Assembly (NCBI GenBank): GCA_038213005.1
Contig: JBBQTU010000061.1
Location: forward strand, 1 to 18,612
Reading direction: 5' to 3'
Length of the DNA: 18,612 nucleotides
Source: Tepidisphaerales bacterium
Lineage (GTDB): Bacteria; Planctomycetota; Phycisphaerae; Tepidisphaerales; Tepidisphaeraceae
The stretch's first letter is position 1. Every line of letters begins with the position of its first letter. A model generated the notes under the pieces. It ran no database searches and was not told where the DNA came from. It saw nothing but the letters and a program-made list of their open reading frames with translations. Position numbers and translations under genes: made by a program. Shown here in pieces: positions 1,848 through 16,097 of this stretch.

Positions 1848-3137
1848 GTGACCCTGGACGCGATCGTTGTCGGCGGGGGACTGGCGGGCATGTCGGCCGC
1901 CACAGCGCTCACCGATGCCGGGGCGAGGGTTGCGCTGATCGAACAGCGCGGCTTGCTTGGCGGCCGGGCCGGCAGCTTTGTCAGTCCCGCCTTTTCCCGG
2001 CGCATGCTGGATAACTCTCAGCATGTCCTGCTGGGCTGCTGTGACGAACTCCAGGCGTTCTACGCGCGGCTCGGAGTCTCTCATCTCATCCAGTTTCAGG
2101 ATGACCTGATCTTCGCTGGTACCACCGGGCGCCGCGGAGTCATGAAGACATCCTGTCTGCCCGCGCCACTGCATCTTGGCCCGTCGATGCTGGGATTTGG
2201 CCTGATCCCGCTAGGGCATCGCATCGAGGTCGCCCTGGCGATGCTGCGAATGCAGGCGATCGGCCGGGATGGCCGCAACCAGTTCGCCGATGTCTCCTTT
2301 GAGCGCGTCCTGCTCGATCTGGGTCAGTCGGCCGGGGCCATCGCGTCATTCTGGGATGTCATCTGCGTGTCGGCGTTGAATGAGCCGTGCGCCACCGCGG
2401 CCGGGCACTACGGGCTCCAGGTTTTCCAGGAGGCGTTCCTGGGCGCTCGCGGCGGCTATCGTCTGGGCTTTGCCCGCGTGCCGCTGTCGATGCTGTATCG
2501 GCACCTGCCGATCGAGACGCTGCTGAACACATCGGTCAAGTCGCTCATTGTCGAATCCGGCCGCGCGTGCGGGGTGAGGCTCACCGATCGCGAACTGCGC
2601 GCCGACCGCATCATCCTGGCCGTCTCTCCCTGGTCGGCAGCGAGGCTATTCACCGCCGAACTGCTCGATGCCGACCCGCAACTCCGCCGCGTGCAGTCCC
2701 TCCAGTATCGCCCGATCGTCGGCGCGCATCTGCAATTCGACCGGCCGATCCTTGACGTCCCCAACCTCGCATTGATGGGCACGCGCCTGCACTGGGCATT
2801 TGCCGATAGCGACGATCCGACGCTGATCCACGGCGTGGCCAGTGCAGCCGACGACCTGTGCCCCCTGCCCCAGCAGGCCATTGCCGACCTGTTCGTCAAT
2901 GAGCTGCGCCAAACCTGCCCGGCCGCACGCAGCGCCACGCTTAGCCACTTTTTGATCGTCAAGGAAACCCGCGCCACCTTCCGCCCGCTACCGGGAGTCG
3001 ATGCTTTCCGCCCAACCCAACGGACGCGTGTCCCCGGTCTGACCCTGGCGGGCGATTACACGCAGACCACATGGCCCTCCACCATGGAGGGCGCAGTCCG
3101 ATCCGGCCGCCTTGCAGCGCGGGCTGCTCTGCGCTGA
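1848..3137 (+). CDS. hpnE: Hydroxysqualene dehydroxylase HpnE-like (FAD-dependent amine oxidase family).
   Basis: GTG start 3 nt after the hpnD stop. N-terminal Rossmann motif IVVGGGLAGMSAA…ALIEQR…LGGR. Contiguous with hpnC and hpnD. Confidence 0.85.
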   Translation: MTLDAIVVGGGLAGMSAATALTDAGARVALIEQRGLLGGRAGSFVSPAFSRRMLDNSQHVLLGCCDELQAFYARLGVSHLIQFQDDLIFAGTTGRRGVMKTSCLPAPLHLGPSMLGFGLIPLGHRIEVALAMLRMQAIGRDGRNQFADVSFERVLLDLGQSAGAIASFWDVICVSALNEPCATAAGHYGLQVFQEAFLGARGGYRLGFARVPLSMLYRHLPIETLLNTSVKSLIVESGRACGVRLTDRELRADRIILAVSPWSAARLFTAELLDADPQLRRVQSLQYRPIVGAHLQFDRPILDVPNLALMGTRLHWAFADSDDPTLIHGVASAADDLCPLPQQAIADLFVNELRQTCPAARSATLSHFLIVKETRATFRPLPGVDAFRPTQRTRVPGLTLAGDYTQTTWPSTMEGAVRSGRLAARAALR

Positions 3138-3739: not shown

Positions 3740-3742
3740 TCC

Positions 3743-3856
3743 AGGCCTGACCCTTGCCGGGGATTACACGCAGACAACCTGGCCCTCCACCATGGAAGGC
3801 GCAGGTCTTGGTCCGACAACGACCTACAACAATCTTGCCAGAATTTGTTTGACCTG
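3743..3856 (+). pseudogene. Decayed duplicate of the hpnE 3' end (encodes IPGLTLAGDYTQTTWPSTMEGAG…).
   Basis: Bases 3745-3820 are ~85% identical at nucleotide level to 3037-3110 of the intact hpnE (cctgaccct.gc.gg.gattacacgcagac.ac.tggccctccaccatgga.ggcgcag). Only ~30 codons are conserved and there is no upstream continuation. Confidence 0.7.
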
Positions 3857-6137: not shown

Positions 6138-6236
6138 GAGGGCGGGTGAGGCGATTCCGGGTTGGCGCCCGATTGACAGGCGTTGCGGCTGACTTACGAT
6201 GCTTGCGGCGGCGGGAGTTGTCGATTCCTTTCCGGA
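6138..6236 (+). promoter_or_regulatory. Conserved promoter/leader element, copy 1: GATTCC…CGATTGACA-16nt-TACGAT…GCGGGAGTTGTCGATTCCTTTCC.
   Basis: Sigma70-like -35 TTGACA and -10 TACGAT with a 16-nt spacer. ~80% identical over ~100 bp to 12888-12990. Lies immediately upstream of nfeD and divergent from the URO-D-like methyltransferase. Confidence 0.55.
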
Positions 6237-6242
6237 TACACC

Positions 6243-6818: not shown

Positions 6819-8467
6819 ATACCCTATTGCCCCTGGCGCTACTGACGGACGATCCGTACTTCCTTTCCGGCGTGCTGGTGGTCTTCGGCGTCTTTTTCCT
6901 GTTCAGCATCTTCCTGCTGTTCGTCCGGCGGTACAAGCGCTGCCCGAGCAACCGCGTGCTGGTGGTTTTCGGCAAGGTCGGGGCCGGCACGTCCGCCAAG
7001 TGCATCCACGGCGGCGGCACGTTCGTTCTGCCGCTGATCCAGGACTACAGCTACCTGAGCCTGGAGCCGATCCAGGTCGAAATCCCGCTGCAGGATGCCC
7101 TGTCGATGGAGAACATTCGCGTCAACGTCCCCAGCGTGTTTACGGTGGCGATCGGCACCGAGCTGGAGGTCATGCAGAACGCCGCCATCCGCCTGCTCGG
7201 GCTGGACACGGCTCACGTCAAGCAGCAGGCGCAGGACATGATCTTCGGACAACTGCGCCAGGTCATCGCGTCGATGCGGATCGAGGACATCAACCGCGAC
7301 CGCGAAGTATTTTTACAGAACATCCAGACGTCACTGGAGCCCGAACTGCGCAAGATCGGCCTGGTGCTGCTGAACGTCAACATCACCGATATCACCGACG
7401 CCTCGGGCTACATCGAGGCCATCGGCAAGAAGGCCGCGTCGCTGGCGATCCAGCAGGCGCGTGCTGATGTCGCCGACAATGAGAAGATGGGCGAGGTCCG
7501 CGTCGCCGAGGCCAAGCGGGAGAAGGACATCCAGGTTGCCAACGCCAACAAGCTCCGCGAGATCGGCATGCGCGAGGCGCAGCGCGAGCAGCTCGTGAAG
7601 GTGGCGCAACTCGAAAAGGAACAGAAGATCGGCGAACAGACCGCCTCTTATGAACGTGAGACGCAGGTCAAGAACGCCGAACGCGACATGCGCATCACGA
7701 TGTCCGACGCCAACGCCAAGGCCATCGCCGGCGAAGCCAGGGCACAGGCCGAGATCGTCAACACCCAGGCGCAGCTCCAGGTGAAACAGGCCGAAGCCTA
7801 TCAGCTCGGCGAGACCCGCAAGCGCGAATCCGAAGCGGCCGTGCTTGAGGCGCAGAACCGCGCCATGGCCAAGGCGGCCATCGCTGACGCCGAACGAGTT
7901 GAGGCCGAGCGCCGGGCGCAGCTCGAAGCGCCCGCGAAGGCGGATAAGGCCAAGATGATCGTCGATGCCGAAGCCGCCGCGGCCAAGAAGCGGATCGAGG
8001 CCGAGGGTGAGGCGTCTGCAATCTTCGCCCGGCTCGAAGCCGAGGCCCGCGGCCAATACGAGCTCCTGGCCAAAAAGGGCCAAGGCCTCGAACGGATCAT
8101 CCAGGCCTGCGGCGGCGCAAAGGAGGCGTTCCAGCTCCTGATGCTCGAACACCTGGACAACCTGGCGGAAACCGCCGCCACGGCGATCTCCAAGATCAAG
8201 TTCGACAAGATCGTGGTCTGGGAACAGGGGGGCAAGGATGGCAGTTCCAATACCGCCAACTTCCTCCATGGTCTATCTCGCACGCTGCCTCCGATGATGC
8301 AGGTGATGAAGGACATCGGCGGCGTGGAGCTCCCGGAATACCTGGTCAAGCTGGGCGGCGACCCGGGCGACAAGCAGTGCGACAAGCCTGCGGCTACGGT
8401 GACGGCCGATGGGGCCGTGAACCAGGCCGATAAGGGCAGCGCAGCGCACGGGGTGGAAAAGGCCTGA
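6815..8467 (+). CDS. Flotillin-like SPFH/band-7 protein (YqiK/FloA-like).
   Basis: N-terminal TM helix, then SPFH domain (…RVLVVFGKVGAGTSAKCIHGGGTFVLPLIQDYSYLSLEPIQVEI…), followed by a long Ala/Glu/Lys/Arg/Gln-rich coiled-coil region and flotillin C-terminus. SD AGGAGA 8 nt upstream of the GTG. Confidence 0.85.
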   Translation: MNTLLPLALLTDDPYFLSGVLVVFGVFFLFSIFLLFVRRYKRCPSNRVLVVFGKVGAGTSAKCIHGGGTFVLPLIQDYSYLSLEPIQVEIPLQDALSMENIRVNVPSVFTVAIGTELEVMQNAAIRLLGLDTAHVKQQAQDMIFGQLRQVIASMRIEDINRDREVFLQNIQTSLEPELRKIGLVLLNVNITDITDASGYIEAIGKKAASLAIQQARADVADNEKMGEVRVAEAKREKDIQVANANKLREIGMREAQREQLVKVAQLEKEQKIGEQTASYERETQVKNAERDMRITMSDANAKAIAGEARAQAEIVNTQAQLQVKQAEAYQLGETRKRESEAAVLEAQNRAMAKAAIADAERVEAERRAQLEAPAKADKAKMIVDAEAAAAKKRIEAEGEASAIFARLEAEARGQYELLAKKGQGLERIIQACGGAKEAFQLLMLEHLDNLAETAATAISKIKFDKIVVWEQGGKDGSSNTANFLHGLSRTLPPMMQVMKDIGGVELPEYLVKLGGDPGDKQCDKPAATVTADGAVNQADKGSAAHGVEKA

Positions 8468-8599
8468 CCGAGGAGCCGGCGACCGCCACCGCAGAGCGTG
8501 GCGGCGGAAGTATAGCGCAGGCAATCGATTGACCGTCATCAAGTCGCTGTCCTATTTCAAAGAGGCCGATGCGGAGGGGCCTGCGGCCAAGTGGGGCGG

Positions 8600-8804
8600 G
8601 CCGCCTCGGCCGCCCATCTGGTCGCTCGCCAACCACCCGCCCATCGCAGCGCCACACCCTCAACCGCCGATCCGCCAAACAGTAGTGCGTGGCGTCCCGC
8701 CCGCACATGTCTTACAGGTGAGTAATCGCCGGCCAAGCCGTTGACGATCTTCATCGTTTCGATGCTGACGTAACGCAACGAAAGGGCTGCCGAGGCAGCG
8801 GCCC
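8600..8804. repeat. ~200-bp direct repeat, copy A. Shared core: …ggccgcccatctggtc.ctcgccaaccacccgcccatcgcagc…gccgatccgccaaacagtagtgcgtggcgtcccgcccgcacatgt.ttacaggtgag.aatcg…ccaagccgttgacgatct.catcgtttcgatgctgacgtaacgcaac.aaagggctgccgaggc.
   Basis: ~94% identical to 9948-10139 by direct comparison. Its 3' ~55 bp also matches 12296-12352. Lies between the flotillin operon and the TA module. Confidence 0.85.
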
Positions 8805-9007
8805 CACCGTGAGGACGCGCAATGGACTTACGCTGTAGTGCTAGGAGTAATATACACACAGCGAGGCCCAACCAGAACAACCCAAGGCCAAAGGTGAGGC
8901 ATTGGCCGAACCGGTCCGGTCCTGAGGCCATCATCACGGGTAAGGCGGGACGGCATATCGATCCCATGCCCGTTTTCCGGCCCACCAAGCCCGCTTTCTG
9001 CGTCCTT

Positions 9008-9481
9008 CTATTCTGTCGGCTGCCGCAGCAAGTCCAGAAACTCCTCTACAGCCAGCACTTTGACTTTCGGGAAAAGCCGCCTGAACTCCGCAGACCAGGG
9101 TTTATCCGGACTACTCAACCCAAGAAGGTGACGGTCGCGACTGACAATCAGCCGGGCTTCAGCCGCCACCGCCAGATCCACATACGGGGAGTCGTCAGGA
9201 TCAATCGGGTGGTCAAACACATGTGGAACAGGAGCGACAACCAGGCACGACGGCAACAACGCATCCAGAAACGCCACCACCTTGGCATCGGTCACGTCGT
9301 ACTTCGCCAGCAGTTTGCGGGGAAGATCTTCGATCTCCGCAATCACGTAGGGACTGAGAACCACAACGAACTCGTTCTTGACGCCGCGCTCAACACACTC
9401 GCCCGCCGGTCCGTACGGGTTAATGAGAGCTTGGGCAAACACCATGCAATCCAGCACCGCTCGCATGGGTCGGCTATTCAT
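9008..9481 (-). CDS. PIN-domain toxin (VapC-like).
   Basis: Size and the …AVLDCMVFAQALI…VVVLSPYVIAEI…LAVAAEARLIVSRD… pattern fit a PIN fold. The ATG at 9481 overlaps the upstream antitoxin stop (ATGAATAG). The 9526 start in the tracker would overlap the antitoxin by 50 nt. Region GC ~52%. Confidence 0.65.
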   Translation of the reverse strand: MNSRPMRAVLDCMVFAQALINPYGPAGECVERGVKNEFVVVLSPYVIAEIEDLPRKLLAKYDVTDAKVVAFLDALLPSCLVVAPVPHVFDHPIDPDDSPYVDLAVAAEARLIVSRDRHLLGLSSPDKPWSAEFRRLFPKVKVLAVEEFLDLLRQPTE

Positions 9482-9746
9482 CAAAGGAGATACCGCGTTT
9501 GGTTTCCCTCGCCTGATGCTTGGCACGTTCTAGGTCGTCGCCAAGTTGTTCGTCTGTCAGACCGCTGGCGAGGAACCGATCATAGGTGTTGCCACTGATC
9601 TGACGCAGATAGTCGCGGGTCAACCCGTGAGTCAGGACTCGCGAGAGCAACTCAGAGGCAAGGATACCCAGATCCTTGCCTGCGGCCGTAGCCCGCTCGC
9701 GCAGGAGAATCTCAACTTCAGGCGATAATGCAACGGAAACCGTCAT
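9474..9746 (-). CDS. Ribbon-helix-helix (CopG/Arc-like) antitoxin.
   Basis: 90 aa, immediately upstream of and overlapping the PIN gene. N-terminal VALSPEVEILLRERATAAGKDLGILASELLSRVL resembles the RHH beta-strand/helix DNA-binding motif. No SD. Confidence 0.55.
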   Translation of the reverse strand: MTVSVALSPEVEILLRERATAAGKDLGILASELLSRVLTHGLTRDYLRQISGNTYDRFLASGLTDEQLGDDLERAKHQARETKRGISFDE

Positions 9747-9947
9747 CAAAGAATAGTATGGGCAGCAACCAGGTCCAAGTCAAACTCTTACGTCGTTGTC
9801 TTGGGAATTTCACGAGGTTGGAATCAATGCCGAGGTTGACAGCGATTCCGCCGCCCCAGCCCAGGAACCCCGACCTCAACAACCAGCGCGCCGCCGCGCC
9901 GCTCCCAGAGTGGGGCCGGCCGCTGCGCAGCATCTCGCCGTGGTGGA

Positions 9948-10139
9948 CCCGGCCGCCCATCTGGTCCCTCGCCAACCACCCGCCCATCGCAGCACCATAC
10001 CCCCAACCGCCGATCCGCCAAACAGTAGTGCGTGGCGTCCCGCCCGCACATGTATTACAGGTGAGCAATCGACAGCCAAGCCGTTGACGATCTCCATCGT
10101 TTCGATGCTGACGTAACGCAACAAAAGGGCTGCCGAGGC
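9948..10139. repeat. ~200-bp direct repeat, copy B.
   Basis: See copy A, with ~12 mismatches over 190 bp. Lies between the TA module and the RM module. Confidence 0.85.
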
Positions 10140-10264
10140 GGGCGATGTATTGGAGGTCGTCCTGTCGGTTTGGGTCGCTGGTAATATTGCTGCGGGTGTC
10201 GGTGTAGACAAGGTATTGGTCGGTGACCCATTCCAGGGCGGAGCGGTTGCCGAGGCGGTAGTTA

Positions 10265-11230
10265 TCAACTGGCTTCCGCCTCTGCTTCAGGTTGCACGGC
10301 TTTGAGGACGGTCGGTTCTGCAGCGGCGATTGGATGTGGCCGTGAGAGGAATTCCCATAAGTCAGTGCAGAAGAACCGGTCGATGGAGTGAATTTGCAGC
10401 TTGAGGAACGCATCCGTCTGCATATTGGGGCGAAGGTCGCAGTAGTACACGCCATCGAGAGGGTTTAGCTTAACCGAGTAGCCCTTGAAGTGTCCGGGCA
10501 AAAATGTGGCATTGATGCCGAAGTTGGGATGTATCCCCTTGCGTTGCACGTCATTGAGGAACAGTGCGACGTGTGGCGTTTGCGTCTGCGTCAGCTTGGA
10601 GTAGAGGAACTTGTCGATGAAGATCTTGTCCATTCGGTCCTTACTCGACGTCTTCACGGAGCCGAGAATCTTGATGTGTTTATCTCGCGTAATGACCAAA
10701 TCGTGCTGGTAGGTCATCTTGAATTCTTCGACACCGTCAACGATGATCGGGATGCCGATGGACCCGCTCTTGCAGTCGACCGCGAGGCCAGAAATCAGCA
10801 GTCTTATCAGCCTCTCGAAGAGATCCCCTGCGACCTTGCTGGCGTTATTCGAGACCGGATGCGCGTCCAGGCACACGCCGATGCACTGCTGAATCGTATA
10901 GATCGAATTGCGCATGATGGTGCGACTCGCCACGTCGTCCGCAGCAATGTCCTTCGCGTGCTTCATCACAGCGGCGAAGTCCCTGGAAAGCACGTTCGCC
11001 TTCTGCGGCGCATACATAAGTTGGCTGTTCACCGGCCGGCTTACTTTGCGGTCGCCGTCGTCCTTGAACTGGTAAAAATAGTAGTGACCCTCATTCCTCG
11101 CCAAGACAGTGCCATGTACACCGCCCTTACCCAGGAAGTCGAGGAAACGGCGTGCGAAGTCCACGTAAGCTTTGACATTGCTGAAGTTCGTCTTGTCGGC
11201 GGCAAAGGAAACGAGTTGGTTCAGAGTCAT
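10265..11230 (-). CDS. Putative Type II restriction endonuclease (family not recognised).
   Basis: Its ATG overlaps the stop of the upstream beta-class DNA methyltransferase (ATGA at 11227-11230). GC is ~50% in a ~65% genome. A PD-(D/E)XK-like stretch (…HDLVITRDKHIKILGSVKTSSKDRMDKIFIDK…) is possible. Assignment rests on operon context. Confidence 0.5.
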   Translation of the reverse strand: MTLNQLVSFAADKTNFSNVKAYVDFARRFLDFLGKGGVHGTVLARNEGHYYFYQFKDDGDRKVSRPVNSQLMYAPQKANVLSRDFAAVMKHAKDIAADDVASRTIMRNSIYTIQQCIGVCLDAHPVSNNASKVAGDLFERLIRLLISGLAVDCKSGSIGIPIIVDGVEEFKMTYQHDLVITRDKHIKILGSVKTSSKDRMDKIFIDKFLYSKLTQTQTPHVALFLNDVQRKGIHPNFGINATFLPGHFKGYSVKLNPLDGVYYCDLRPNMQTDAFLKLQIHSIDRFFCTDLWEFLSRPHPIAAAEPTVLKAVQPEAEAEAS

Positions 11231-12183
11231 CGGATGCTTTCTCTTCGTGTGGCGTTTCGCCGGTCGTGCTCTATCCACTCGTCGACAGGCGTTCGTTTGA
11301 CGTTTTCAATTCGCTCCACCGCCCATCTTGTATACTCCGTGCTTTGGTCGCATGCGAGCCACCTCCGACCGAGTTGCTCGGCTACCGCCGCCGTCGTGCC
11401 GGAGCCACTGAAAGGGTCGATGACAAGGTCGCCCGGATCGCTCGCGGCGAGCACAAGTTTGCGCACCAACTCCTCTGGCTTTTGCGTGGGATGGGGCGTC
11501 TTTTCGCCCATGCCATTGCAGGTCGTCGGAATCTCAAGCACATCCTTTGGCTTTGCTCCGAGTGGGTTCGGGGTCCAATCGTCTTCGCGCTTCCGACCGC
11601 TGCCAAAGTTGCTCGTGATCGCCTGAGGGTGTGTCGGGTATTTCAGCGTGTGAGCGCCGTACGGTATGCGGACCTTGTCCACGTTCAGACGGAATTCGTC
11701 GGTCTTCCGAAGGTGCAAAATGCTTTCGTGTGACCGCCCCCAGTCACTTCCGAGGTTCGCCTTGTTCTTGTAGTGCCAGACCAGCCACTTGCAGTGCTTG
11801 AACAAACGCGACGCCGGGTGCTTCATATCCGCAAGGATCTCTGAGAAGCCGCACACATAGAGCGATCCCGAAGGCCTCAGCGCCCGCGCGGCGGGCTCAA
11901 GCCATCGCATCGACCATTGTATGTAATGCTCCTGGCTCTCAAACGCGTCCCAATCAGCTTTGTTGATGTTGTACGGCGGATCAGCGAAAATCAGATCGAC
12001 GGACGACGGAGGGAGGGATTCCAGCCAAGGTATGCAGTCACCAACGTAAAGCGATCCATTCGGATGCGTGTAAAACAACGCGAAGCCTTCGCCATTGACC
12101 GTGCTATCGACGAACTTACCGCGAGTTGGACCGGGCTCCGCAAAGAGCTGCGGTGTCCCAGGCTTGAACCGCTTTATGGGCAT
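11227..12183 (-). CDS. Beta-class DNA methyltransferase (probably N6-adenine, possibly N4-cytosine).
   Basis: Motif IV DPPYN (…LIFADPPYNINKADWD…) precedes motif I FSGSGTT (…VIDPFSGSGTTAAVAEQLGRRW…). That permuted order defines the beta group. Low GC. Confidence 0.85.
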   Translation of the reverse strand: MPIKRFKPGTPQLFAEPGPTRGKFVDSTVNGEGFALFYTHPNGSLYVGDCIPWLESLPPSSVDLIFADPPYNINKADWDAFESQEHYIQWSMRWLEPAARALRPSGSLYVCGFSEILADMKHPASRLFKHCKWLVWHYKNKANLGSDWGRSHESILHLRKTDEFRLNVDKVRIPYGAHTLKYPTHPQAITSNFGSGRKREDDWTPNPLGAKPKDVLEIPTTCNGMGEKTPHPTQKPEELVRKLVLAASDPGDLVIDPFSGSGTTAAVAEQLGRRWLACDQSTEYTRWAVERIENVKRTPVDEWIEHDRRNATRRESIR

Positions 12184-12295
12184 TTCAGAACCTTAACATA
12201 TTCCAGGGCCTACTGGTAGCCACATCCATGCTCGCGCGGGCAGTACGGAGCCCGGAATCGGAAGAGGTTGACGCCCTGCTGGATAGCACGGCACC

Positions 12296-12352
12296 GATGG
12301 AGGTGCTGACGTAATGCAACGAAAGGCCGGCCGAGGCGGTCGCCCCACTGCG
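12296..12352. repeat. Partial third copy (3' ~55 bp) of the 200-bp repeat.
   Basis: gatg..ctgacgtaa.gcaacgaaagg…gccgaggc.g…gcccca c.g.g.g matches the end of copy A. The match includes the A-specific tail beyond the point where copy B diverges. Confidence 0.6.
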
Positions 12353-12887
12353 GAGACCGGGAAACAGAATATCTTTCAAATCCAACTTGACCCATCAAGA
12401 CCCGTATCTTATGCTTATCTCACTTAGCCATAGCGCCCAGTGTGCGCGCTGGCTACGGTGCTCTTTGAAAAGTGAATATCCGGCCATTTACTGGCCAGTG
12501 CCGCCATGCGGCCCCGCGGCACTCCGTCGGACTAGCGAACTTTACCGTATGCTAACATCTACCGTCGCACAGGTGCCCTGCCTTCCACCGGTCCCGTTCT
12601 GACTCGACTTACATTCAAGCGCCTCGGCAGAACGAAACTTGAGCATCTGACCCCTTGAATCGCACGTAAGTCCTTATCAAAACTCCTCTCCCGACCCCCT
12701 CCCCCCACCCCTGGAAAACGTGCGCATCTTGCCCGCCCGATCGCACGTAAGTCAGACTGGCAGTGCGGGGGAATGGTGGAAAGTCAGTGGCAAGCAGAAA
12801 GGCCAGCGCAATAACGGTGGTGGAAAGCACTCGCCACGCGCAGGATGCAAAGTCACGGGCACGCCCGCCTGCAAGGCCGCAAGGCCA

Positions 12888-12990
12888 GACTACGCGCGAA
12901 TCGATTCCAGCCCGACGGCCGATTGACACGCGGGCCGGCTCACTTACCATGTTTTGCGATGGCGGGAGTTGTCGATTCCTTTCCCGATAG
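12888..12990 (+). promoter_or_regulatory. Conserved promoter/leader element, copy 2 (-35 TTGACA, -10 TACCAT, conserved downstream GGCGGGAGTTGTCGATTCCTTTCC).
   Basis: Aligned by eye to 6138-6236 (~80% identity). Lies ~115 bp upstream of the homocysteine methyltransferase ATG. Confidence 0.55.
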
Positions 12991-13105
12991 GCCGGGTGCT
13001 TTGACGCCGCATGGGGTGGAAAAGGCCAGACCGCGGAGCCGGAAGTGGCTGCGGCGTTGCGCAGCGAAAACCAACTCGAACGTTTCAGCACGAAGGGATC
13101 GCGAC

Positions 13106-13993
13106 ATGGGTATCATTCTGGATCGTCTGGCCAAGAAGAAGCTGCTGGTGTCCGACGGCGCCTGGGGCACGATGCTGCAGGCCCAGGGGCTTGGCGGTGG
13201 CGACATTCCGGAAGAGTGGAACGCCACGCACCCCGATGCCGTGCGCTCGGTCGCCGCGGCCTATGACCAGGCCGGCTGCGATATCGTCCTCACTTGCACG
13301 TTCGGCGGGTCGTCGGCGAAGCTGGAGAAGTGCGGCCTGGGCGCGCGGGTTGTGGAACTGAATGAGAAGGGGGCCAGGTTGTCGCTGGAGGGCGCGCCCC
13401 ATGCGTGCGTGGCGGCGTCGGTGGGGCCCACGGGCGAGTTCCTCGAACCCATGGGCGACCTGACCGAAGCGCAGATGGAAGCGATCTACCGCGAGCAGAT
13501 CGCCGCCATTTACGCAGCCGGCGTCAAGGCGGTCTGCATCGAGACGATGTCGTCGCTTGAGGAAGCCACCTGCGCGATCCGCGCGGCCAAGAAGCTGAAT
13601 AAGGACAATGATGTCATCTGCACGATGACGTTCGCCGCGGCGGGCGATGGCTACAAGACGATGATGGGCGTGAGCTGCGAAGAGGCGGCCAAAGGCCTGA
13701 CCGCGGCCGGCGCGGACATCGTCGGGGCCAACTGCGGCAACGGGCCGGAGGAGATGATCGCCATCACCCGCGAGATGCGCAAGCACACGAAGCGGCCGAT
13801 CCTGGTCCATCCCAATGCGGGGATGCCGCAACTGGTGGACGGCAAGACGGTTTTCAAGCAGACGCCGGCCGACATGGCGGCCAAGGTGCGAGACCTGGTC
13901 GCGGCCGGGGCCTCGATCATCGGAGGGTGCTGCGGCACCACCCCGGCACATATCGCCGCGATCAAGGTTGTGGTGGATGAGCTTCGGAAATAA
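13106..13993 (+). CDS. Homocysteine S-methyltransferase domain protein (MetH N-terminal domain / MmuM / BHMT-like, Pfam S-methyl_trans type).
   Basis: …LLVSDGAWGTMLQ…DIVLTCTFGGS…GANCGNGPEEM…IIGGCCGTTPAHIAAI…. The zinc-ligand cysteines lie in the GxNCG and GGCCG motifs. SD AAGGGA 7 nt upstream of the ATG at 13106. The tracker's 12845 start is an upstream run-on. Confidence 0.85.
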   Translation: MGIILDRLAKKKLLVSDGAWGTMLQAQGLGGGDIPEEWNATHPDAVRSVAAAYDQAGCDIVLTCTFGGSSAKLEKCGLGARVVELNEKGARLSLEGAPHACVAASVGPTGEFLEPMGDLTEAQMEAIYREQIAAIYAAGVKAVCIETMSSLEEATCAIRAAKKLNKDNDVICTMTFAAAGDGYKTMMGVSCEEAAKGLTAAGADIVGANCGNGPEEMIAITREMRKHTKRPILVHPNAGMPQLVDGKTVFKQTPADMAAKVRDLVAAGASIIGGCCGTTPAHIAAIKVVVDELRK

Positions 13994-15088: not shown

Positions 15089-15171
15089 GCCGCGGTCTGG
15101 CCCAGGCCCTCGATCCGCTCGGGGCAGATCGACGGGCTAGCACTACAGCGCAACTTCATAGCGATGCGATG

Positions 15172-15235
15172 CAATTTCAAATAGGACGCGCTTCGATTGA
15201 CGGCAATTTCAAATAGGACGCGCTTCGATTGACGG
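15172..15235 (+). repeat. Perfect tandem duplication of the 32-bp unit caatttcaaataggacgcgcttcgattgacgg.
   Basis: Read directly. Each unit ends in the recurring CGATTGAC -35-like octamer. Lies downstream of the oxidoreductase gene and upstream of a small ORF with a strong SD. Confidence 0.8.
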
Positions 15236-15588: not shown

Positions 15589-15679
15589 GCGCATCAATAA
15601 CCGTCCGGTTCAAAAAGCGCACCCCCTCCCAACCTCCCCTAGGGGGGAGGAGTACCATTCCTGCCAGTTATTGATGCGC
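15589..15679. repeat. MITE/REP-like palindromic element: 13-bp perfect terminal inverted repeats (gcgcatcaataac / gttattgatgcgc) around an inner hairpin ctcccaacctcccc-tag-gggggagg.
   Basis: Read directly. It sits exactly between two convergent stop codons (15583 and 15686). The inner core is shared with the hpnD intragenic palindrome (1139-1180) and partly with 12683-12714. Confidence 0.65.
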
Positions 15680-15685
15680 CGGTCT

Positions 15686-15949
15686 TTACGGCTGGCGCTT
15701 GGCGTCTTCGGCCGCCTTTTCGGCAGCGGCTTTGACATCGGCGGCTTCCTTGTCGGCCTTGGCCTTGGTGTCGGCGGCGGCCTTCTCAGCGTCGGCCTCC
15801 GCGTTGGCGGCATCCTTCTTGGCCTCGGCCCTGGTGTCGGCGGCGGTCTTGGCGGCGTCGGTGGCGGCGGGCGTTTGTGGCCGATCATCACAGCCCACCA
15901 TCAAGGCGCCTGTCAGAAACAGCGGCAGTATGAAAAGCTTCGTACGCAT
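15686..15949 (-). CDS. Small secreted Ala/Lys/Asp-rich lipoprotein (87 aa).
   Basis: Signal peptide with lipobox (MRTKLFILPLFLTGALMVGC). SD AAGGGAG 5 nt upstream. Low-complexity A/K/D/E repeats. The competing plus-strand Gly-rich ORF and minus-strand Pro-rich ORF are frame artefacts of the same repeats. Confidence 0.6.
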   Translation of the reverse strand: MRTKLFILPLFLTGALMVGCDDRPQTPAATDAAKTAADTRAEAKKDAANAEADAEKAAADTKAKADKEAADVKAAAEKAAEDAKRQP

Positions 15950-16008: not shown

Positions 16009-16097
16009 CGTCCCCTTTGAGAGGCGCGTCCTCTTTGAAAGGCGTCCTCTTTGAAGAGGCGTCCTCTTTGAGAGGCGCGTCTCCTTTGAGAGGCGGC
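16009..16097. repeat. Five tandem ~17-bp units TCCTCTTTGAGAGGCG(CG), each containing the palindrome cctct-ttg-agagg.
   Basis: Read directly: tcccctttgagaggcgcg / tcctctttgaaaggcg / tcctctttgaagaggcg / tcctctttgagaggcgcg / tctcctttgagaggcgg. Lies in the 214-bp gap between the histidine kinase stop and the lipoprotein start (same strand). Confidence 0.8.

Follow-up and report, generated by a model that had tools for sequence, protein, structure and literature searches.

Organization of the locus

The stretch of DNA analyzed here (the window) is a whole contig of 18,612 bp, in which two small gene modules lie side by side on the minus strand, bounded and separated by copies of a single sequence that we refer to as R3. 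One of them is a toxin-antitoxin (TA) pair, comprising a gene for a PIN-domain toxin (9008-9526, minus strand; PIN_3, E 1e-8; TIGR00305, E 3e-11; GC 57%, GC3 65%) and a 91-aa ORF (9474-9749, minus strand), which is regarded as a putative antitoxin from its position upstream of the PIN gene, whose start it overlaps. The original prediction of a PIN toxin with an RHH antitoxin agrees with this for the toxin, and the RHH family of its partner stays unverified, as no match was found for this ORF in Pfam, NCBIfam, PADLOC or PDB. The other module is a Type II restriction-modification (RM) pair, recognized as such from the beginning. Its REase gene (10265-11230, minus strand) is matched over the full length by the PADLOC family REase_II (PDLC03436, E 3e-81), while its partner encodes an N4/N6 DNA MTase (11227-12183, minus strand; N6_N4_Mtase, E 3e-47; MTase_II, E 3e-63). 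The REase is 100% identical to P0241 and exhibits a weak full-length match to 6ekr_A in the PDB. Both modules are compositionally foreign, with GC of 54-58% against 63% in the background and GC3 of 61-72% against 76-88%; the lower GC expected of them is thus real, if not by the margin initially given (50-55% against about 65%).

R3 is 190-240 nt long and is present three times on the minus strand. Copy A (8575-8816, with the core at 8607-8796) is located downstream of the TA pair and adjoins the 3' end of the flotillin gene, copy B (9950-10139) lies between the RM and TA modules, and copy C (12304-12357), found upstream of the MTase gene, comprises only the first 34 nt of R3 and a 20-nt patch. 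In a self-BLAST comparison the core of A and the whole of B share 94.7% identity over 190 nt (E 5e-66), with 10 of the 190 positions different and an exact run of 50 nt; weaker similarity continues past a 25-nt indel, reaching about 8575 in A and about 9905 in B. Copy C is 81% identical to positions 8763-8816 of A (E 1e-7) and 87% identical to positions 10106-10144 of B (E 2e-5), and the 20-nt patch that forms the 5' end of A (8797-8816) is common to C only. These alignments bear out the arrangement that was originally described: three copies of one sequence, the third reduced to its right-hand end (as read on the plus strand), with one module between consecutive copies (TA between A and B, RM between B and C), both modules on the minus strand, and each accompanied by a copy at its 3' side (TA by A, RM by B).

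The left-hand boundary of the island is marked by the flotillin gene's native 3' end (R2, 8445-8479, plus strand), through which homology with a related locus (L068) extends to position 8474. At the right-hand boundary (12893-13042, plus strand), R1' (12893-12989), which duplicates the promoter and leader of nfeD-flotillin, is fused to R2' (13008-13042), which duplicates the 3' end of flotillin. Their partners on the contig are R1, a promoter-like site and leader upstream of nfeD-flotillin (6143-6238, plus strand; 78% identity to R1'), and R2 itself (91% identity to R2'). Copy C is separated from this boundary by a non-coding spacer of 535 bp (12358-12892; 57% GC), originally estimated at 750 bp, which contains two 38-nt direct repeats and folds modestly better than shuffled sequence. 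It was proposed as a possible decayed attI/integrase region, a suggestion that finds no support in its ORFs, none of which matches a recombinase or any other protein family.

Origin of the repeat

Judged by homology, R3 is not an integron site. It stems from the 3' terminus of a defunct restriction gene of Type ISP ('predicted helicase') and comprises the last ~20 codons of this RM gene, which make up the first third of the repeat, and about 130-170 nt of downstream DNA. Copy B continues into 127 more bases of the same gene (10140-10266, minus strand), and this contiguous tail piece (YRLGNRSALEW...YIARL) starts at the stop codon of the REase gene. The ORF that runs into copy B is matched by the Pfam family Type_ISP_C (PF18135) at profile positions 296-331 of 342 (E 5e-5), a peptide search with the tail returned 683 homologues, and the coding part is 80% identical at the DNA level to the Type ISP tail in the locus L048, with the similarity crossing the R3 boundary. 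From position 10266 through the first third of R3, the sequence resembles the C-terminal ~65 residues of the Type ISP enzymes (LlaGI/LlaBIII family; Type_ISP_C, PF18135), from which it differs in that the tail is present alone, in three copies, and frameshifted by a 4-nt insertion. Only profile positions 296-342 are left, frameshifted, and there is no full-length nuclease/helicase/methyltransferase/Type_ISP_C ORF; the tail is thus the relic of an enzyme gene that is no longer intact, and the R3 copies themselves probably do nothing.

The 4-nt insertion, defined relative to intact tails including that of the full-length gene in L055, is found in A, B and C alike, which argues that the copies duplicate one tail that was already dead. 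It is at first and second codon positions that A differs from B, in line with neutral drift. Since the copies differ by 5-19%, either the events that generated them are old or the copies come from diverged donors.

An identical frameshifting insertion in all copies would also result from a local tandem duplication of the dead-tail segment by unequal crossing-over, followed by replacement or deletion of the contents, in which case the repeats would not stem from the entry of modules; other segmental duplications, R1/R1' and R2/R2', are indeed present on the contig. Nonetheless, we consider this unlikely, as two more independent replacements would be required to bring foreign modules with no relation to each other into neighbouring units, the boundaries of the copies are out of register (B is 127 nt longer on the 5' side and C breaks off after 34 nt), and another duplicate on the contig, that of hpnE, derives from a diverged allele rather than from a local copy. 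The two copies of the hpnE tail (3033-3096 and 3741-3804) differ by synonymous third-position changes only (8/8, chance ~1.5e-4), which identifies the remnant as coming from a diverged functional allele, i.e. as a recombination scar. Such allele-like divergence is not seen between copies A and B of R3, which look neutral, their tail being already dead. The duplicated tails of hpnE and flotillin both bound inserts, and the presence of three independent duplicated tails on an 18.6-kb contig suggests frequent recombination with diverged relatives in this lineage.

As the contig is metagenome-assembled and A and B have an exact run of 50 nt in common, strain variants that differ in their modules at a given locus could in principle have been stitched together via the shared repeat. 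However, such a stitch would yield one hybrid copy, not two distinct copies around an intact TA pair; 10 of the 190 positions distinguish the copies, and the flanks are different on both sides, which makes an assembly artefact very improbable.

Integron-like geometry and recombination sites

Co-oriented modules, each with a repeat copy at its 3' side, have the geometry of integron cassettes, and the locus was initially likened to a gene + attC array or CALIN. On this reading R3 would serve as attC, the TA and RM pairs as cassettes, and the integrase would be encoded off the contig. Chromosomal integrons often contain TA cassettes, which counts in favor of this reading. The likeness to CALINs comprises the small co-oriented modules followed by repeat copies, the TA content and the lack of a nearby integrase (Cury et al. 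2016, PMC4889954). CALINs, however, need two or more genuine attC sites (PMC4889954), while R3 derives from part of a coding gene and lacks attC structure. Its 190-240 nt exceed the length of classical attC sites, as was already apparent from the first inspection, and it has no family match in Rfam. No GTTRRRY or RYYYAAC box is found inside any of its copies, no correctly ordered pair of boxes within 150 nt occurs anywhere in the window, and GTTRRRY is present 18 times against 21 expected by chance. Folding of R3 in comparison with shuffled sequence gave no signal on either strand (z from -1.7 to +0.7), and thus no palindromic fold.

The contig is also devoid of any transposase or integrase and leaves no space for an integrase gene, and neither an intI gene nor an intI pseudogene was found over its whole length, all gene-sized ORFs being either non-recombinase or unmatched. 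The original prediction had been right that clean R''/R' boxes and an integrase are missing from the window, but the attC-like hairpin and the intI gene beyond 12.4 kb, by which it proposed that an integron might be recognized, are absent as well, the latter up to the contig end. The integron or CALIN reading is already close to refuted, and we find it scarcely tenable.

A related possibility is a cassette system without integrons, undescribed so far, in which an off-contig recombinase of Planctomycetota would shuttle TA and RM pairs into arrays seeded at dead Type ISP tails. In that case R3 would be a co-opted attachment site, and an analogous role would fall to the ~150-nt direct repeats (89% identity) that flank a HigBA pair in the locus L073. 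Small co-oriented modules split by 150-200-nt direct repeats are indeed found near a Type ISP tail in these two unrelated loci, every copy of R3 goes back to one founder, and the same 5' junction patch is present in A and C. Against it stand the lack of a recombinase on the contig and the repeat boundaries, which vary from copy to copy and define no fixed crossover point. Moreover, exact-pattern scans with the R3 core revealed nothing in metagenome contigs, viral contigs or plasmids, nor in 1 Mb of fetched loci beyond the Type ISP coding part; RM homologues occur elsewhere without such a repeat (see below), and the L073 repeat, which gives no fold signal, is unrelated in sequence to R3. We therefore regard this system as improbable. 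On our reading R3 is no dedicated recombination site, and a tempting false positive is thereby eliminated: an integron-like geometry can arise without any integron machinery, and array geometry alone should not count as a cassette system.

Proposed entry of the modules and comparison with other loci

Homologues of the MTase-REase pair have been also found in the loci L069-L072. Homologues of the pair with 77% and 64% aa identity are located beside lpxB (L069) and between methionine genes (L071), at sites with no R3, no Type ISP tail and no long flanking repeats, and their DNA homology to the pair studied here ends inside the coding region (10314-12066). The occurrence of RM homologues without R3 in other Phycisphaerae indicates that the repeat belongs to the target and not to the cargo.

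We propose that the locus is probably a small and variable islet of defence and addiction genes in a Phycisphaerales-like (Planctomycetota) genome, where the PIN toxin with its antitoxin and the Type II REase/MTase pair would have recombined into or beside the dead Type ISP tail, each entry leaving an additional copy of that tail. This is supported by the foreign, lower-GC modules each bounded by a repeat copy, in agreement with the original view of a modular locus that gained defence and addiction pairs; the alternative that it offered, hot-spots of another kind for recombination or insertion, also comes close, with repeats of a dead gene tail in place of dedicated sites. Insertion as such, the order of events and the route of recombination are what we infer from the sequence. 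Events of this kind are already known, and two routes may be envisaged.

The first route would be an insertion in which a long target is duplicated, as described for RM units (Nobusato et al. 2000; Furuta, Abe and Kobayashi 2010, PMC2853133). The parts of the latter paper considered here characterize such units by R and M homologues within the insert (here REase_II, E 3e-81, and MTase_II, E 3e-63), by an insert below 20 kb without other mobile-element genes (here ~2.1 kb for RM and ~1.1 kb for TA) and by a flanking direct repeat above 30 bp (here 39-54 bp for RM, between B and C, and 190+ bp for TA, between A and B). The likeness extends to an R and M pair without a mobility gene, a repeat that overlaps a gene 3' end, and GC of the insert unlike that of the genome. 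Compared with the cases in the same parts of that paper, in which Planctomycetota are not among the taxa named, the repeats here are just 81-95% identical, a TA pair is bounded likewise, giving two modules and three copies of one target, and the flanks of the RM pair are no clean duplication. Neither an empty nor an intermediate site was found among related genomes, the closest of which have 85-93% aa identity for single genes and no synteny with the locus.

As read from its junctions, the RM unit does not fit a simple target duplication, because the Type ISP tail would be expected before C, where the 20-nt patch common to A is found instead, and because the 127 nt of tail before B are absent from C; one or more further rearrangements, or a copy brought in by the donor, would be needed. 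For the TA unit, 190 nt at 95% identity should suffice for RecA to delete, excise or amplify it.

On the second route, DNA of a related genome would be anchored by homology in the conserved tail and joined illegitimately at its other end, displacing the resident tail downstream, which amounts to sequential displacement by homology-facilitated illegitimate recombination. Displacement of Rhs C-termini is a comparable system. In the arrays of T6SS effector-immunity modules (Kirchberger et al. 2017, PMC5361080), a conserved segment of a gene is the point of entry for new modules, and what was there before is pushed downstream, so that strings of orphaned gene 3' regions remain as direct repeats and no integrase is involved. 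The R3 copies are similarly orphaned ends of a Type ISP gene, whose tail, being 80% identical in DNA between unrelated genomes, would be usable as a homology anchor, and the hpnE remnant, with its synonymous changes only, exhibits the divergence expected between donor and recipient. On the other hand, the orphaned piece is a conserved restriction-gene tail and not a variable toxin end, unrelated defence and addiction modules rather than immunity genes lie between the copies, and no intermediate forms are seen in relatives.

The known pattern of selfish RM units with long flanking direct repeats is thereby extended to Planctomycetota and to a TA pair. A modest generalization is also suggested, namely that Type ISP genes often leave their conserved 3' tail as a remnant next to variable TA or defence modules, so that this tail may provide the homology by which defence-gene turnover is anchored. 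Such a remnant is directly adjoined by an MTase and a putative REase in L058, and in L052 it is found beside an AAA_21+DUF4276 pair. Between L046-48 and L073, the flanks are 88-90% identical while the TA content directly after the Type ISP tail differs, and the identity of 97.5% in a TA segment that they share implies recent transfer.

Origin of the three-copy repeat

The predicted three-copy repeat (R3), whose copies A and B enclose a toxin-antitoxin (TA) pair and copies B and C a restriction-modification (RM) pair, was recovered by self-comparison of the contig. Copies A (8607-8796) and B (9950-10139) share 94.7% identity across 190 nt (E 5e-66), and their similarity resumes past a 25-nt indel, reaching about 8575 in A and 9905 in B; copy C (12304-12357) exhibits 81% identity to A 8763-8816 and 87% identity to B 10106-10144. 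Mis-assembly is an unlikely source of these copies, as their flanks are distinct and A and B differ at ten of the 190 positions. An R3 boundary is crossed by a minus-strand ORF that enters copy B and matches positions 296-331 of the 342-position Pfam profile Type_ISP_C, the C-terminal domain of Type ISP restriction-modification enzymes. The corresponding conceptual peptide (YRLGNRSALEW...YVSIETMEIVNGL) has 683 relatives, all of which contain PF18135, and from 10262 down to 10084 the DNA is 80% identical to the Type ISP tail in an unrelated metagenome contig, with the identity continuing uninterrupted across position 10139. R3 thus comprises the final ~20 codons of a Type ISP gene and about 130-170 nt downstream of it.

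Copy B keeps 127 further bases of the Type ISP gene (10140-10266), beginning exactly at the stop codon of the restriction endonuclease (REase); A (8797-8816) and C (12338-12357) have in common a patch of 20 nt on the 5' side of the repeat, at the place occupied in B by true ISP sequence. When aligned with tails of other genomes, both intact and fragmentary, A, B and C have an identical 4-nt insertion that breaks the reading frame, so the three copies descend from one already dead gene tail. The differences between A and B are spread over codon positions and mostly change amino acids, in agreement with the expectation for a pseudogene. The possibility that R3 supplies promoters was rejected, since the single promoter-like site preceding the TA pair (9783-9755) falls outside R3. 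The segment abutting the 5' edge of copy A (8818-8844) is 85% complementary to 15137-15163.

The original prediction regarded this arrangement as integron cassettes or a CALIN, for which PMC4889954 requires a minimum of two true attC sites of palindromic structure; no such sites were found at R3. No R3 copy contains a GTTRRRY/RYYYAAC box, no correctly ordered pair of these motifs at attC distance occurs anywhere in the window, and GTTRRRY has 18 occurrences against 21 expected. Neither strand of R3 folds better than shuffled sequences (z from -1.7 to +0.7). The anticipated intI is lacking as well: there is no recombinase gene on the whole 18,612-bp contig, which coincides with the window, and no space for one, because it is occupied by gene-sized ORFs, namely hpnCDE, those of a cold-shock protein, a URO-D-like protein, NfeD-flotillin, the TA and RM pairs, homocysteine S-methyltransferase, an oxidoreductase, a histidine kinase and a KaiC-like ATPase, and a few small ORFs without a family match. 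A non-coding stretch does lie beyond copy C (12358-12892), but its size of 535 bp differs from the predicted figure, and its ORFs gave no family match that would identify a decayed attI/integrase region. It has no Rfam or protein-family match, folds somewhat better than shuffles (z -2.3), and contains two 38-nt direct repeats (12635-12672 and 12716-12753, 76% identity) with inverted matches nearby. The integron/CALIN interpretation is thus not supported. MITE ends, another suggestion, were discarded because a short terminal inverted match at the ends of copy A (GCCTCGGC/GCCGAGGC) is not retained in B, and a tRNA-targeting island was ruled out by an Rfam scan without a match and a tRNA scan that detected no tRNA genes.

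Foreign modules and their homologs

The TA module comprises a minus-strand PIN toxin gene (9008-9526), identified by matches to PIN_3 and TIGR00305, and an overlapping upstream ORF of 91 aa (9474-9749), a putative antitoxin by its placement; its predicted RHH identity is unverified, with family and PDB searches giving no match. The RM module consists of a REase of Type II (10268-11230; PADLOC REase_II, E 3e-81) and an N4/N6 methyltransferase (MTase; 11227-12183, E 3e-63). Both modules are compositionally foreign, although less strongly than had been claimed, with a GC content of 54-58% versus 63% and GC3 of 61-72% versus 76-88%.

Homologs of the RM pair have been found in other Phycisphaerae, one adjoining lpxB in L069 (77% aa identity) and another (64%) in L071, flanked by metXW and a Cys/Met-metabolism gene. 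Inspection of both sites revealed no R3, no ISP tail and no long flanking repeat, and DNA similarity to the window is restricted to 10314-12066, within the coding region. The RM pair therefore moves independently of R3, which is a property of this locus. A site-specific cassette system of a hitherto unknown kind has a low probability, given these R3-free homologs, the variable boundaries of the copies, and a scan of metagenome contigs, viral contigs and plasmids with the R3 core pattern that returned no matches. Both modules are of foreign origin and move independently, and neither a dedicated site nor a dedicated enzyme for their movement is detectable.

Proposed entry of the modules, and Type ISP tails in other genomes

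The fallback of the original prediction, a different kind of insertion hot-spot, is approximately correct: each module probably entered by general recombination at or beside the dead tail. This could have occurred in two ways. One is insertion accompanied by a long target duplication; PMC2853133 describes this for RM units of all types, with repeats of 46-423 bp that sometimes overlap 3' ends of genes. The TA unit is compatible with a simple target duplication, with B continuous with the upstream tail and A with the downstream flank, whereas the RM unit does not, as C lacks the 127-nt tail piece preceding B and shares its patch with A; for the RM unit, a tail copy brought in by the donor or a subsequent deletion has to be assumed. 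The other way is sequential displacement (PMC5361080), in which incoming DNA would anchor by homology in the conserved tail, its other end would join illegitimately, and the resident tail would be pushed downstream. Tandem duplication of the tail followed by replacement of the content between copies would also yield such an array, but it needs more events and leaves the out-of-register copy boundaries unexplained. The locus is an example of an already known type of RM/TA-linked rearrangement, in a Phycisphaerales-like genome.

Many of the best matches to the tail peptide are tail-only ORFs of 70-130 aa, several of them inside long contigs, and a metagenome survey with this peptide, using search patterns too specific to this sequence, gave 12 loci. 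Several remnants start close to the YRLGNRSALEW motif, as in the window. Loci L046-L048 and L073 are 88-90% identical in their flanks up to the tail end; beyond this point they differ by a further 258-aa gene, by DUF5615/DUF433, and by HigA, which occurs with or without HigB. A TA segment common to the two lineages is 97.5% identical, which implies a recent exchange. In L073, an unrelated genome (7083-9353, compared with 10240-12405 of L048, where HigB is deleted), DUF5615/DUF433 and HigBA pairs directly follow the tail remnant. The TA pairs are separated or bounded by a direct repeat of ~150 nt that is present in three to three and a half copies, with 89% and 83% identity, and has no fold signal and no sequence relation to R3. 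Other modules of defense type directly adjoin remnants, namely an N6_N4 MTase with an upstream ORF in L058 (4029-6771) and an AAA_21 and DUF4276 pair in L052 (148-3102), and in L076 the remnant is located among housekeeping genes. No second tail copy was present in any other fetched locus. A modestly interesting lead is that variable defense loci may be recurrently marked by Type ISP gene tails.

An empty site was sought through relatives of the flanking genes. The homocysteine S-methyltransferase gene (13106-13993) has counterparts in two Phycisphaerales species-representative MAGs (L001 and L002) with 85-87% aa and 82% DNA identity, the similarity beginning exactly at the start codon, and neither shares neighbors with the window; the conserved nfeD-flotillin block likewise has a different setting in every relative. 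Gene order is thus poorly conserved in this lineage.

Other duplicated gene ends and small repeats

The 3' end of hpnE (3033-3096) recurs 708 nt downstream (3741-3804, 87.5% identity); the ~640-bp insert in between contains no recognizable gene. All eight differences are synonymous third-position changes (about 1.5e-4 by chance) and the 21 encoded residues are identical, so the remnant derives from a diverged but functional hpnE allele and is a scar of recombination with a relative's DNA, not a drifted target duplication. The flotillin 3' end at 8445-8479 is native, as homology to a relative with 89% identity passes through it. It recurs at 13008-13042 (91%), fused to a duplicate (12893-12989, 78%) of the promoter-like site and leader preceding nfeD (6143-6238), just upstream of the S-methyltransferase gene. 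The fusion looks like a second copy of the operon minus its coding block, and through these duplications direct repeats enclose the entire TA/RM island (8480-12892). The junctions may carry a CCGATA microhomology.

Small repeats have been also noticed elsewhere in the window. The 27 nt at 15137-15163 just precede a perfect 2 x 32-nt tandem repeat (15171-15234) located after the oxidoreductase gene, and four or five tandem ~17-nt CGTCCTCTTTGAGAGGCG-like units (16009-16095), all of them small palindromes, closely follow the histidine-kinase gene on its downstream side. A 31-nt hairpin-like element, CACCC.CTCCCAACCTCCCC.A.GGGGGAGG, is present in two copies (1139-1169 and 15620-15650, 90% identity), one of which has a sub-threshold Rfam match to whalefall-1 (E 0.8). 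Degenerate 15-33-nt periodic repeats (CTTGGC/GTCGGCGGC...) within overlapping small ORFs at 15698-15862 probably represent a low-complexity Ala/Lys/Asp-rich protein encoded on the minus strand.
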